Assembly: GCA_019746225.1 (NCBI GenBank)
Contig: JAIESE010000023.1
Span: 9,117 to 73,116, forward strand
Length of the DNA: 64,000 bases
Source of the DNA: Alphaproteobacteria bacterium
GTDB lineage: Bacteria; Pseudomonadota; Alphaproteobacteria; Paracaedibacterales; VGCI01
Direction: 5' to 3'
A program made the translations under genes and the position numbers. This document shows, in pieces, positions 10,264 to 63,166 of this stretch. The notes under the pieces were generated by a model that was not told where the DNA came from, ran no database searches, and saw only the letters and a program-made list of their open reading frames with translations. The number at the start of each line of letters is the position of its first letter. The first letter of the stretch is position 1.

Positions 10264-10731
10264 CTATTGATCATCGTCACCTGTTACATCGTCTTCACCT
10301 TCAGAAGGTCGCATTCTTTTATTACAAATATGTTCTAATGTACTAACGTACGGACCAAGTTCTTCGACAAGTTTAAATAAGGTTGGGAATCGGCTATAAT
10401 GAGGAATTTGAATAATCGCTACAGCCCCACCTTTTATAAACTGATATAAACCTTCTTCAACACTCATGCCAGCCTTTGCATATTGTGTAAATATGTTAAG
10501 TCTTGCTTCCTCATTTAAATGAAAAACTCTTGAAAGCGTTTTAAAGGGATTTGTCCCTGTCAAACGCATGTTTGTGTTATAAACGTCGCTCATTTCTTTT
10601 GCGCATTCACTGATATCATCTGAACATACTCTTTTATGTGTGGAAAGAGCACTTTCACTAGGATTTTTGTTTTCTGCCCCTTGCGTTTGGAAAACGCACA
10701 AAGCCATAACGATTAATAATGCTTTCTTCAT
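10264..10731 (-). CDS. Hypothetical secreted protein
   Basis: ORF track 155 aa; signal peptide MKKALLIVMALCVFQTQG-AE; acidic C-terminus. Confidence 0.7.
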   Translation of the reverse strand: MKKALLIVMALCVFQTQGAENKNPSESALSTHKRVCSDDISECAKEMSDVYNTNMRLTGTNPFKTLSRVFHLNEEARLNIFTQYAKAGMSVEEGLYQFIKGGAVAIIQIPHYSRFPTLFKLVEELGPYVSTLEHICNKRMRPSEGEDDVTGDDDQ

Positions 10732-10894
10732 AATATACCTTTTTAAAAATGTGGAAATTTTAATTGTTTAAAGTATATATATGTTTATTATTTAATCTTT
10801 ACAAATGTTTTTTATTTAGTTAAATTTTATTAAATCAAACACGAAACAACTTGAACACTTTTTATTCAGCTAATATGGAGAAGAATTTAACCTT

Positions 10895-11389
10895 CTAAAC
10901 AATCTCAGGAATATGTTCAATTTGGGGATTATGATCAATATTTTCGAAAAAAGTCAGAAAATGTTTTAGACGCACACTGATGGTCATATCGTTTCGAAGG
11001 GGGTGAAAATTTACCAAATCATACGTCAAAAAATCCTTATCTAATAAGAATTTGACTTTACGATCTTTATCATTCAAAAGGCCATAGGGCGTAACGGAAC
11101 CTGGAGCAACACCCAAAAAACAAGCCAGCTCTTCTGCACTTCCAAACGAAAGATGGCCTGAAGCAAATTTCTTTGCAAGCGCCTTTAAGTCAACACGCTT
11201 TGAATCAAGAACTGAAACAAGAAAATATTGCTTCTTTTTATCTTTTAAGAAAAGATTTTTACCATGTGCTCCCTCAATCACCACCTGAAGTTTTTCAGCG
11301 TCTTCAGCTGTAAATAGGGGTTCATGGGTAAAAAGTTCATAGTCCAAACCATATTTTTTAAATAACTCAAACAGCTTTTGATGAGGCAT
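10895..11389 (-). CDS. Prolyl-tRNA editing protein (YbaK/ProXp-ala/PrdX family)
   Basis: HEPLFT, KNLFLKDKK, SFGSAEEL and GVAPGSVTPYGLLND motifs. Confidence 0.9.
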   Translation of the reverse strand: MPHQKLFELFKKYGLDYELFTHEPLFTAEDAEKLQVVIEGAHGKNLFLKDKKKQYFLVSVLDSKRVDLKALAKKFASGHLSFGSAEELACFLGVAPGSVTPYGLLNDKDRKVKFLLDKDFLTYDLVNFHPLRNDMTISVRLKHFLTFFENIDHNPQIEHIPEIV

Positions 11390-11390
11390 C

Positions 11391-12737
11391 CTATTTTTCT
11401 CCAGGTGAGGTAATCAGAATCCCAAATCGCTCCATAAGCTTCTGCTTTTCGGCTGGTTTTAAGCGTAAAGTCAGGTGGATCACTTCGTCTTCATCTTCGC
11501 GACTAACAATCACCCCTTGGCGATAACACCACGCCAACACTTCTCCTTCTGAGGCTGGAATGGTCACCACAAGAATGGTCCCCTTCTCTCTCAACTTTTC
11601 ATCAATGCGCCCTAACAACGTCTCAATGCCTTGACCATTGATGGCCGAAATCGCAACCACATTGTCGTCGCGTTTCAACCGATTTTCAAGACTTGCGAGC
11701 TCCTCCCCTTCCAGAAGGTCTAGTTTATTACACACCTCTAAAAGAATCCCTGACTCTAGGGGATGTGTAATATCGAGTTCTTCAAGCACTTGATAGACAT
11801 CGTCTGCTTGTTGGTCTGTCTCGGCGTGCGCAATATCTCGAACATGGAGAATGAGGTCCGCGGCACACACTTCTTCCAAAGTGGCTCGAAAAGCTGCAAT
11901 CAATTGCGTTGGCAAGTCTGAGATAAAGCCGACCGTATCTGATAATATAATCTGACGACCGCTGGGCAATTTGACCTGTCGCATGGTAGGATCAAGGGTT
12001 GCAAATAGAAGATCTTCTGCAAACACATCCGCATGGGCAATCAGATTGAACAAGGTTGACTTTCCCGCATTGGTATAGCCAACCAAGGCCACAACGGGAT
12101 AGGGCACGCGACTGCGAGCGGTGCGATGCAGCCCACGCGTTCGTTTAGCTGCGGCAAGCCCTTTCTTAATTTTTAAAATGCGATCATCAATCAAGCGGCG
12201 ATCTAGCTCCAACTGCGATTCACCCGGTCCACCAATGAACCCGAATCCGCCCCGTTGTCGCTCCAAGTGGGTCCAAGACCGAACCAGGCGACTGCGCTGA
12301 TAATTAAGGGCTGCAAGTTCAACCTGGAGAGACCCTTCGGCTGTGCGCGCTCGATCACCGAAAATTTCAATGATCAAACCGGTGCGATCAATGACCTTAC
12401 ATCCCCAAGCTTTTTCCAAATTTCTCTGTTGAATGGGTGTAAGCGCGTTATCCACAACCATAAGTTCGATTTCCAGAGCCTTAATAAGCCCTGTCAACGC
12501 CTCAAGGTTTCCTTTTCCAATCAAGGTTGCGGGAACAACTTTATGTAATTGAATGACCTGACTGTGAACAACATTTAGATTAATCGCAAGTGCAAGACCG
12601 ACAGCTTCATCCAGTCGACCTTGAACGGTTCTCGCTTTGGGGGAGATGATATCTCCCTCTTTTATATTGCGCGTTCGAAAACTTGCATGAAGAACCCCCG
12701 TTCGCGTGGGGGTTTTGGAAGCCCGATCGTCAATCAA
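11391..12737 (-). CDS. hflX: GTPase HflX
   Basis: IFGDRARTAEGSLQVELA, GPGESQLELDRR, GYTNAGKSTLFN, LFATLDPT, DTVGFI; directly downstream of hfq. Confidence 0.97.
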   Translation of the reverse strand: MIDDRASKTPTRTGVLHASFRTRNIKEGDIISPKARTVQGRLDEAVGLALAINLNVVHSQVIQLHKVVPATLIGKGNLEALTGLIKALEIELMVVDNALTPIQQRNLEKAWGCKVIDRTGLIIEIFGDRARTAEGSLQVELAALNYQRSRLVRSWTHLERQRGGFGFIGGPGESQLELDRRLIDDRILKIKKGLAAAKRTRGLHRTARSRVPYPVVALVGYTNAGKSTLFNLIAHADVFAEDLLFATLDPTMRQVKLPSGRQIILSDTVGFISDLPTQLIAAFRATLEEVCAADLILHVRDIAHAETDQQADDVYQVLEELDITHPLESGILLEVCNKLDLLEGEELASLENRLKRDDNVVAISAINGQGIETLLGRIDEKLREKGTILVVTIPASEGEVLAWCYRQGVIVSREDEDEVIHLTLRLKPAEKQKLMERFGILITSPGEK

Positions 12738-12742
12738 TCAGA

Positions 12743-13039
12743 TTATTCCCCATCATCTTCATGAAATTCAGGATCTTCTATAGAATGCTCATCCGCACCT
12801 ACGGCAGAAGAAGCCTCAAATAACTGAATCGGCCCTTGTGGCATGACGGTGGAGATAGCATGTTTGTAAACAAGCTGGGAATGCCCCTCCCGACGCAAGA
12901 GCATCGAAAAGCTATCAAACCAAGTCACAACACCTTGCAACTTCACGCCATTGACTAGGAAAACTGTCAATGGGGTTTTGTTTTTACGGACATGGTTGAG
13001 AAAAACATCTTGAACATTCACAGGCTTATCGTTGGCCAC
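12743..13039 (-). CDS. hfq: RNA chaperone Hfq
   Basis: [21 protein letters not shown] and [11 protein letters not shown]m motifs; acidic tail. Confidence 0.98.
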
Positions 13040-62495: not shown

Positions 62496-62533
62496 ATAGT
62501 AAGACTCCATGAATTTTGGGTAATATACAGCTT

Positions 62534-62561
62534 ATATAGTCATAATTTTGTCAAATACAAG
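62534..62561 (-). promoter_or_regulatory. Putative sigma-70 promoter of the HicA-domain gene
   Basis: Minus strand CTTGTA-N16-CTATAT. Confidence 0.45.
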
Positions 62562-62651
62562 TAATAATTACAAACTTCTGCAAAAGTTGAAGCCTAATGA
62601 ATCATTTATGACTCTGATTTGCCACCCTAATGAATGATACTCTGCTGAAAT

Positions 62652-62689
62652 GTAAAAGGCTTCAGATAACCTAAGTTACCTGAAGCCTT
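62652..62689 (-). terminator. Putative Rho-independent terminator of the 62705-63166 gene
   Basis: AAGGCTTCAG...CTGAAGCCTT perfect 10-bp stem with an inner stem; short U-run on the minus strand. Confidence 0.65.
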
Positions 62690-62704
62690 CGTTTCTAGAC
62701 CAGC

Positions 62705-63166
62705 TTATTCCTTAAAGAAGCTGAGAGCTTTTTCTTTTGCACTATCAACTAAGCCAAGGAAAAAGCTTTTTGCCTCTGGATCTTTGACTTTACTGTCAAT
62801 CCCCTCTTTTGCTAGATAGGAAACGCCTTTGACAGCTTTTTCTCCTACTTTCCCGAGATCTTCGTTTTCTTTTTTGAACTTTTCATTTATTATTTTAGTA
62901 TTTTTAAGAAAATCACCAGTTACTTCAGTCAAACTTGGTTCTTTTACCCTTGGCTCGATGGGTATTTTATGTCGAAGAAGATCTGGGTTCTCTTTCGAAT
63001 ATTTCTCCACCATTCTGTTATGACCTTCAGGATACCTTTCTGAATGATCAAAGTATTCTCTTGAATGAGACTCCATTGCATTCAATGTTGAAGGTACCGC
63101 TGCTGATAAAATTGTTAAACAAAAGTAAGATACTTTTTTTAACTGGTTTGTTTTTTTCATAATCAT
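62705..63166 (-). CDS. Hypothetical secreted protein
   Basis: Signal ending LNA-ME; charged helical mature part. Confidence 0.72.
   Translation of the reverse strand: MIMKKTNQLKKVSYFCLTILSAAVPSTLNAMESHSREYFDHSERYPEGHNRMVEKYSKENPDLLRHKIPIEPRVKEPSLTEVTGDFLKNTKIINEKFKKENEDLGKVGEKAVKGVSYLAKEGIDSKVKDPEAKSFFLGLVDSAKEKALSFFKE

Follow-up and report, generated by a model that had tools for sequence, protein, structure and literature searches.

Introduction

In the sets of signal peptidase I substrates described from Gram-negative bacteria, alanine dominates at the first position behind the cleavage site (+1) and methionine is rare there. Acidic residues behind a cleavage site set the destination of a protein under the lipoprotein +2 rule (Lol avoidance) and in the Bacteroides lipoprotein export signal, and in PEXEL, the RxLxE/Q/D element of Plasmodium, cleavage leaves an acetylated x-E/Q/D end that is needed for export to the host cell. 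The closest documented analogue of the feature reported here is the Q-rule of the Bacteroidetes, under which signal peptidase I substrates carry a lineage-specific glutamine at +1 that is cyclised to pyroglutamate (PMC5837995, PMC10653852). The present analysis concerns a stretch of 64,000 nucleotides (hereafter the window; positions 9117-73116 of contig C70, GenBank JAIESE010000023.1) in the alphaproteobacterial assembly GCA_019746225.1 (G000), where a first-pass annotation had noticed that unrelated proteins with Sec-like leaders share a predicted mature end of methionine followed by glutamate or aspartate. That signature was borne out far beyond chance, and on a larger scale than the annotation's sample: genome-wide, methionine is the commonest +1 residue, its coupling with Asp, Glu, Gln or Asn at +2 is the near-invariant feature, and the rule is selected at the level of the protein, in a lineage- and cargo-specific manner.

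The literature searched contained no account of a Met(+1) rule, and signal peptides are nowhere mentioned in a 2025 review of the Holosporales (PMC11909080); the rule is apparently undescribed so far. If true, it would join the Q-rule of the Bacteroidetes as only the second +1 rule specific to a lineage among substrates of signal peptidase I, and in each genome it would point to some 60 or more exported eukaryote-like proteins, a ready catalogue of effectors. By way of the junction residues one could also test what allows Sec-exported proteins to enter a host's cytoplasm or to last there. For annotation there is a more practical consequence, as an in-frame ATG right behind the leader tempts gene finders to start there, and the signal peptide is then lost.

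A predicted methionine-acidic end behind ordinary Sec leaders

The assembly to which the window belongs comprises 2.38 Mb in 76 contigs, with a GC content of 43.6%. Its 2005 genes were taken from our own caller, which combines longest non-overlapping open reading frames (ORFs) with codon statistics, and leaders were detected from n-region charge, core hydrophobicity, small residues at -1 and -3 and an absence of later membrane helices, a scheme that is blind to +1 and +2. The detector is crude and lets through some cytoplasmic proteins, presumably including a DnaE-like and a CTP-synthase-like protein, and all cleavage sites named here (marked ↓) are predictions. With 32 lipobox-like leaders set aside, 375 non-lipoprotein leaders were analysed.

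Methionine occupies +1 in 63 of these leaders, ahead of alanine (57), and glutamine does so in 14; the top +1/+2 dipeptides are ME (29), AE (24), MD (16), SE (12) and MQ (10). Behind Met(+1) the next residue is E in 29 cases, D in 16, Q in 10, N in 3, G in 3 and L or P in one each, so that D/E/Q/N account for 58 of 63 (92%), against 134 of the 312 other leaders (P = 7e-14). The motif [AGS]M[DEQN] was seen 71 times in the 14 residues behind the hydrophobic core, a place for which the remainder of the proteome predicts 3.7 (P about 1e-63). When M[DEQN] is simply counted in c-region windows, with no picking of sites, 75 of 85 occurrences (88%) are preceded by A, G, S, C or T, compared with a background of 27%, and a weight matrix built from non-Met leaders only ranks the junction among the top 3 of 27 positions for 57 of the 63.

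The leaders themselves are predicted to be ordinary Sec/signal peptidase I signal peptides. They share with the classical type a basic n-region (median of two K/R), a core of about 10 residues and a median length of 23 residues, features in which the Met and non-Met classes are alike, together with small residues at -3 and -1, a single lepB gene and, within the window, secB. At the 63 Met junctions, -1 is A in 39, S in 11, G in 9, T in 3 and C in one, and -3 is drawn from S/T/A/C/I/G/V/L. Met falls to 6 of 70 if AXA is strictly required, since S, T or C stands at -3 of Met leaders, and such a filter is no help for confidence. None of the 63 has a twin-arginine motif. A dedicated second signal peptidase was considered and dropped, since only one LepB gene exceeds the cut-off in a component search that covered LepB and SecB. 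What distinguishes the set from classical substrates is the lead of Met at +1 and its tight link with D/E/Q/N at +2.

The likeness to the Q-rule lies in a lineage-specific preference, presumed to act after cleavage, as to which residue signal peptidase I leaves in front. The differences are the use of Met, the additional +2 requirement, a coverage of about a fifth of leaders and the exclusion of conserved housekeeping exported proteins; a Q-rule proper is not what this genome has, with Gln(+1) in 14 of 375 leaders and Met(+1) in 2 of 36 conserved exported proteins. With PEXEL the junction shares the predicted exposure, by proteolysis, of an N-terminus with E, Q or D in second place, and PEXEL proteins go to the host cell; however, the protease differs, there is no RxL here (Arg at -3 in 0 of the 63 picked sites and in 1 of the 85 cleavage-agnostic occurrences) and the present system is bacterial. 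The lipoprotein rules differ in acting on a lipidated Cys exposed by signal peptidase II, whereas the leaders considered here have no lipobox, those with one having been set aside.

The junction and translation initiation

A Met codon at a fixed place behind a hydrophobic stretch invites the suspicion that the leaders are translated 5' untranslated regions, with the true start at Met, in other words that chance, composition or gene calling produced the pattern. An AT-rich genome, in which U-rich upstream sequence translates as hydrophobic residues, and a home-made gene caller would favour such an artefact. Shine-Dalgarno motifs, sought 4-18 nt upstream, speak otherwise: 61-65% of leader starts have one, as do 3% of junction ATGs, fewer than the 7.6% of internal in-frame ATGs, and on this ground the junction ATG was rejected as a present start. 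Controls that are themselves AT-rich (GC 34% and 40%) returned no matches to a motif whose probability here is about 1e-63, small residues at -1/-3 reach 88% over a background of 27%, and the public gene call for the window orphan 60543-62510 (650 residues) contains the leader. The probability of an artefact is therefore practically negligible.

It is conceivable that the Met is a fossil, left at the junction when cytoplasmic or acquired genes gained leaders by 5' extension of an older reading frame. This would explain why Met falls at exactly the junction position, and the genes of the Met class are indeed young, lineage-restricted and clustered. The second-residue spectrum is nevertheless wrong for a former start: ordinary starts are followed by T, S, K or A, and by D/E/Q/N in 15% of cases, compared with 92% at the junction Met (P = 5e-42). 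About 15-18% of called starts are non-ATG, but GTG provides 2 of 18 Val and TTG 5 of 20 Leu codons at +1; because this matches the codon usage of the genome, with no excess and GTG even below it, non-ATG starts have left no trace there. Nor is there a Shine-Dalgarno remnant (3%). The -3/-1 rule is satisfied exactly at Met, the Met state has been gained or lost at least four times in a single protein family (patatin, see below), and selection would be needed in any case. Fossil starts were rejected, and we rate them as very unlikely.

Dual initiation, in which the junction ATG would be an internal start that yields a leaderless cytoplasmic copy (for example for the type VI secretion system, T6SS) beside the Sec-exported one, has a certain appeal. 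By the established specificity of methionine aminopeptidase, Met-Asp/Glu retains its Met in the cytoplasm and both isoforms would be identical; a T6SS occurs throughout the order (41 of 41 genomes); and the junction codon is ATG only, never GTG or TTG. Against it stand the same low Shine-Dalgarno frequency, under the internal-ATG background, a second-codon spectrum unlike that of true starts and the existence of orthologues with A-E junctions that have no internal start. Because the Shine-Dalgarno, start-codon and second-residue tests were all negative, this explanation, like that of fossil starts, is rated low, and we regard it as highly improbable.

Common descent of the genes or of their leaders fares no better. 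Paralogy was discarded as the cause of the shared signature, as the 63 Met-class mature proteins fall into 56 unrelated BLAST clusters, which upholds the observation of the first-pass annotation that a fixed +1/+2 pair follows Sec-type leaders on unrelated cargo. Its further suggestion, the spread of a reusable leader module, was not sustained: the ten proteins that it quoted from the window are mutually unrelated, apart from a marginal match between 34561 and 37654 (E = 0.003), and a blastn-short comparison of the 240-nt leader regions of these ten genes, which was the extent of the search for a mobile or duplicated module, found nothing significant, with one 12-nt match at E = 0.026.

Distribution and softness of the rule

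The same code was run on 200-400-kb samples of other genomes, in which f1 (the window's family), f3, f7, f8 and f10 are family labels. Met(+1) counts per leader were as follows.

Three other alphaproteobacteria (GC 63%, 40%, 34%): 0/60, no motif matches
G031 (f7): 6/35
G012 (f7): 9/29
G035 (f7): 5/27
G032 (f8): 1/24
G023 (f3): 0/14
G021 (f10): 0/12
G001 (same genus as G000; 1.8 Mb): 2/58, few cases

The comparison of G000 with the pooled controls gives P = 9e-5, and the rule is present in at least one further Holosporales family (f7). GC content was dismissed as its source, given the zero counts in the AT-rich controls.

Homologues of the window's patatin-like protein occur in five families of the order, with leader↓M[DE] junctions placed before N-terminal linkers that are mutually non-homologous. 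On the patatin tree the Met state requires 6 changes, of which well-supported branches make at least 4 unavoidable, and the Met-bearing proteins are not clustered. Tandem patatin paralogues in genome G027 end their leaders NAQA↓AE and QVAA↓MD, and Met and non-Met junctions are likewise mixed within paralogue families of G000. The single homologue of the window orphan 60543-62510, found in the same-genus genome G001 (L223:1327-3132; 30% identity), has the leader end SSYA↓AE. For these reasons Met-acid and Ala-acid are exchangeable states, and their interchange argues against a receptor that strictly depends on Met.

The cargo is accessory

Exported proteins that are conserved beyond the lineage are not the ones that carry the junction. 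Of 36 leader proteins of G000 for which another family or order offers a homologue (identity of 35% or more), 2 have Met(+1), namely TraN (Met-Asn) and a Sel1 protein, and homologues in a 393-kb same-genus sample exist for 2 of 63 Met-class proteins as opposed to 43 of 312 with other leaders (P = 0.018). A bias of the same kind in ordinary exported proteins would have spoken against the first-pass annotation, and since these conserved proteins lack the signature, its Met class stands. Genes of the class also lie side by side more often than expected (11 adjacent Met-Met pairs against 1.8), and two such groups, 22223-24302 and 58739-63166, are in the window.

A Pfam scan of ten Met-class proteins identified pentapeptide repeats with Smr, F-type TraN, a flavin amine oxidase, a trypsin-like protease, two leucine-rich repeat (LRR) proteins, a GNAT and a Sel1-repeat protein, with two lacking any match; the window contributes a patatin and an LRR protein to the cargo. 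The TraN gene (contig C34, about 2.8-4.4 kb; a 528-residue gene starting at 4379, - strand) has homologues in G001 (contig C2) and G031 (contig C1), and the three junctions read IEA↓MN, VEA↓MN and LMA↓MK. Other exported proteins of C34 have near look-alikes on C36 and C51 as judged by N-terminal sequence, and these contigs, on which TraN alone was identified, may represent several copies of a conjugative element.

The GNAT-type acetyltransferase is exported behind a Met-class leader (contig C74, 209-residue gene starting at 67242, + strand; Pfam E = 6e-5), and a second exported Met-class protein on C69 (268-residue gene starting at 9980, - strand) is GNAT-like by eye only. Exported GNATs with such leaders would be intriguing if N-terminal acetylation plays a part.

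A proposed tag for the host cytoplasm

Holosporales are obligate symbionts of protists, and their manipulation of the host is now ascribed mainly to the T6SS. In eukaryotes, Met before a small residue is trimmed by methionine aminopeptidase, Met before a bulky hydrophobic residue is a degron, and Met-Asp/Glu/Asn/Gln forms the substrate class of NatB. The source organism of the window is assigned, by an HflX that is 79-80% identical to those of three Candidatus Finniella metagenome-assembled genomes, to the Finniella-type members of this order, whose habitat is the cytoplasm of cercozoans and ciliates (2025 review, PMC11909080).

The motif, the statistics behind it, the genomes in which it occurs and the fact that it does not depend on translation starts lead us to infer the following route, to which we give about an even chance of being right. 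Signal peptidase I would cut an ordinary leader and leave a mature end of Met followed by Asp, Glu or Gln, rarely Asn; this neo-N-terminus would act after export as an N-terminal identity tag, selected on accessory, fast-evolving, effector-like exported proteins and tuned to the host cytoplasm. On the host side, cargo would be delivered to the cytoplasm in which Finniella lives free, where a Met-D/E/N/Q end would, alone among Met-first ends, escape both methionine aminopeptidase trimming and the Met-hydrophobic degron and would belong to the NatB substrate class, a class matched by the +2 residues seen here (E 29, D 16, Q 10 and N 3 of 63). The Ala/Ser/Thr-Glu junctions of orthologues would then be NatA-type equivalents, and a soft property of host compatibility of this sort fits the interchange of M-E and A-E better than does a strict receptor.

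Several points weigh against tuning to the host. Met is not obligatory, as switches between M-E/D and A-E occur in orthologues and tandem paralogues, and the same-genus genome G001 yields few cases. TraN, an envelope protein, keeps Met(+1) across two families with Asn or Lys at +2. A general depletion of destabilising (N-degron) +1 residues could not be demonstrated with a noisy predictor. NatB normally acts co-translationally, so its action on delivered proteins is an assumption, and a reader in the bacterium would explain the same motif.

One such bacterial-side explanation is a stability cap, in which the Met-acid end would guard proteins against periplasmic or extracellular aminopeptidases, with neither sorting nor host mimicry. 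The precedent is the Q-rule, by which extracytoplasmic proteins become more stable (PMC5837995, PMC10653852), and a soft, interchangeable Met state would suit a quantitative effect on stability. The Q-rule, however, covers most exported proteins, including housekeeping ones, whereas the conserved exported proteins of G000 are without the Met-acid junction. Unmodified Met is no obvious block to an aminopeptidase, and we know of no modifying enzyme for a Met end that would correspond to glutaminyl cyclase. We therefore regard a stability cap as distinctly unlikely.

A bolder form of the host-side proposal would make the Met-D/E/Q end a tag whose dedicated purpose is to bring proteins into the host or to let them survive there, convergent in two unrelated groups of protist-dwelling bacteria (of which the Holosporales are one) and a bacterial counterpart of the PEXEL-derived N-terminus. 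Its reader would be an outer-membrane exporter or the host itself, through NatB or evasion of N-degrons, and Sec-dependent proteins, not only T6SS cargo, would form the main effector arsenal. This we treat as a tentative idea, plausible enough to state and still improbable.

Export machinery and a possible second step across the outer membrane

The first-pass annotation had suggested that the motif is a second sorting signal for a two-step route, first Sec and then the outer membrane, and had named the type II, type IV and type VI systems and TolC as places to look. What an inventory of G000 supplied is a T6SS, three TolC-type proteins and a filament system resembling the type II secretion system (T2SS) or Msh, all of whose genes fall under the NCBIfam equivalog cut-offs; the VirB4-family ATPase of type IV secretion had no match in G000 and is present in 1 of 41 genomes of the order. 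The T6SS sheath protein TssC was found in 41 of 41 (E mostly about 1e-125 to 1e-134, lower for fragmented copies in three), and this distribution, with VirB4 in one genome, agrees with the published view of the T6SS as the conserved Holosporales system. F-type TraN is present in G000, which may point to a conjugative F-like system.

The type IV filament genes are dispersed. They include a GspE/MshE-like ATPase (453 bits; the GspE cut-off is 630) with an MshEN/cyclic di-GMP domain, followed by a GspF-like platform protein (211 bits, cut-off 424) and three adjacent ORFs without a family, and elsewhere an orphan secretin whose best match is MshL (206, cut-off 250) and one weak pseudopilin. A Tad cluster with a CpaC-type secretin is also present. 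At least one ATPase of the T2SS/type IV pilus family (PF00437, with GspE- and CpaF-types not separated) occurs in all 41 genomes of the order searched. A 531-residue Met-class orphan (DCTKA↓ME; C76:146060-147655, equivalent to L100:14060-15655, - strand) lies directly upstream of the operon of the GspE/MshE-like ATPase and the GspF-like protein.

In its full form the proposal holds that a periplasmic or outer-membrane machine reads the free Met-acidic N-terminus and exports the cargo, with the Msh/T2SS-like filament as one candidate. It draws on the restriction of the motif to accessory cargo rather than conserved exported proteins, on the presence of the ATPase, platform, secretin and pseudopilin genes, on the PF00437 gene in every genome searched, on the Met-class gene next to the ATPase operon and on the precedents of the lipoprotein +2 rule and the Bacteroides lipoprotein export signal. 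The swap between M-E and A-E in orthologues and tandem paralogues counts against it, and the machinery is equally present in Met-poor genomes (G001, G023). The filament genes, besides falling below their cut-offs, are as MSHA-pilus-like as T2SS-like, and to our knowledge no linear N-terminal signal for T2SS exists. A route by Sec and then across the outer membrane is possible, with no particular machine tied to the motif, and a second-step sorting signal in the above sense, the chief rival of the host-side proposal, appears doubtful.

Two very large proteins with RTX calcium-binding repeats, of 1796 and 1726 residues, are encoded in the window (1549-6939, - strand) and on contig C55 (L099:9692-14872); together with the three TolC-type genes they suggest a type I secretion route.

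The Met-class genes of the window

The window consists of housekeeping genes (hfq, hflX, glmU, glmS and rne by reading of the translations) interspersed with many orphans. All ten N-terminal strings that the first-pass annotation had quoted are in the sequence letter for letter. Five of them belong to the Met class.

22223..22300, + strand: exported patatin-like phospholipase (gene 22223-23668; Pfam Patatin, E = 2.8e-16), leader of 24 residues at 22223-22294, junction ATG GAA at 22295-22300, SSIEA↓ME
23856..23939, + strand: exported LRR protein (gene 23856-24302; Pfam LRR_4, E = 8e-11), leader of 26 residues and junction ATG GAT, SSTFT↓MD
60071..60151, - strand: orphan (gene 58739-60151; from sequence), leader of 25 residues and junction ATG GAA, GALQS↓ME
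62421..62510, - strand: orphan (gene 60543-62510; from sequence), leader of 28 residues (23 from an MSKIL start) and junction ATG GAA, FPCLS↓ME
63071..63166, - strand: orphan (gene 62705-63166; from sequence), leader of 30 residues and junction ATG GAG, STLNA↓ME

For the patatin-like protein, the predictor that is blind to +1/+2 chooses the same site, and GGAGG precedes the leader ATG, with no Shine-Dalgarno motif before the junction ATG; similarly, AAGGAG precedes the leader start of 62705. Homologues in the genus were sought with a chimeric query of six window orphans against six same-genus genomes. Five of the six had none there, genes without a homologue in these genomes including 23856 (LRR), 58739 and 62705, and in a search of 5.8 billion proteins 60543 returned itself alone; for these two reasons, conservation of the junction Met among orthologues of the window genes cannot be assessed.

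Of the identities first given to these genes, patatin and LRR are upheld by Pfam, and F-box (58739) and HicA (60543) are not. The former gene matches no Pfam family even at E ≤ 5 and nothing in a PDB sequence search; the latter has a sub-threshold HicA_toxin match (12 bits, E = 0.19) and an empty PDB sequence search, and both labels were set aside as unsupported. Some 90 C-terminal residues are conserved between 60543-62510 (- strand) and its G001 homologue (L223:1327-3132), with the pattern ...VWTIP...DGPI...YRR.L..FL...IDPEDVVLK, and this region may be a secreted HicA-fold domain. In the protein of 58739-60151 (- strand) the cleavable-looking leader is accompanied by several hydrophobic stretches of the C-terminal half, and the protein may be a membrane protein instead of a soluble effector.

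The G-A-E/D/Q class

The remaining five strings had been grouped as a second signal class, with Gly at -1 and Ala followed by Glu, Asp or Gln.

10672..10731, - strand: orphan (gene 10264-10731), leader of 18 residues and GCA GAA, FQTQG↓AE, an ordinary context of a small residue before Ala-acid
34028..34108, - strand: orphan (gene 33182-34108), leader end GATYG↓AE, with an alternative GAEA↓ND favoured by the blind predictor
35341..35424, - strand: coiled-coil orphan (gene 34561-35424), leader end TITWG↓AE, with an n-region YKNLAF that resembles that of the next gene
37515..37607, - strand: coiled-coil orphan (gene 35529-37607), leader end SFTLG↓AQ, with an alternative TLGA↓QG favoured by the blind predictor
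38716..38787, - strand: coiled-coil orphan (gene 37654-38787; from sequence), leader end TCVLG↓AD

This grouping does not survive. The motif [AGS]A[EDQ] is enriched 5.7-fold, compared with 22.6-fold for [AGS]M[EDQ]; in the 57 Ala(+1) leaders -1 is Ala in 45 and Gly in 8; and in 33182 and 35529 G↓A is outscored by an adjacent Ala↓X site. Because a 5.7-fold enrichment fits ordinary sites, Gly(-1) is in the minority and alternative sites exist for these two genes, G-A-E/D/Q is not a special class: it is an ordinary signal peptidase I context (a small residue before Ala-acid), and the Met class alone is unusual. Genome-wide there are 18 cases of GA[EDQ], 4 of them on the window's contig, and the G-A-E cases are clustered locally in four adjacent orphan genes.

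Three adjacent exported proteins at 34561-38787 (- strand; genes 34561, 35529 and 37654) are Lys/Glu-rich and coiled-coil by eye, and two of them share the n-region motif YKNLAF/FKNLAF. In view of this shared n-region, the G↓A-E cluster at 34561-38787 is taken to be, probably, a diverged tandem family.

Neighbouring genes

Two housekeeping genes of the window belong to the export pathway or the exported proteome.

38948..40300, - strand: M48 peptidase with tetratricopeptide repeats (Pfam), the exported housekeeping control, leader end PISA↓GP
43483..44037, + strand: secB, export chaperone of the Sec pathway (Pfam SecB, E = 3.8e-41)

The M48 peptidase, which we take to be BepA-like, has no Met-acid junction behind its leader. 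An ORF of 124 residues antisense to secB (43410-43784, - strand) is almost certainly spurious. At 44360-57163 (- strand), directly downstream of the trio of Met-class genes, tandem ORFs of 3340 and 918 residues encode giant exported orphans with Sec-type leaders (VVLA↓CE and QILA↓SD) and no Pfam family.

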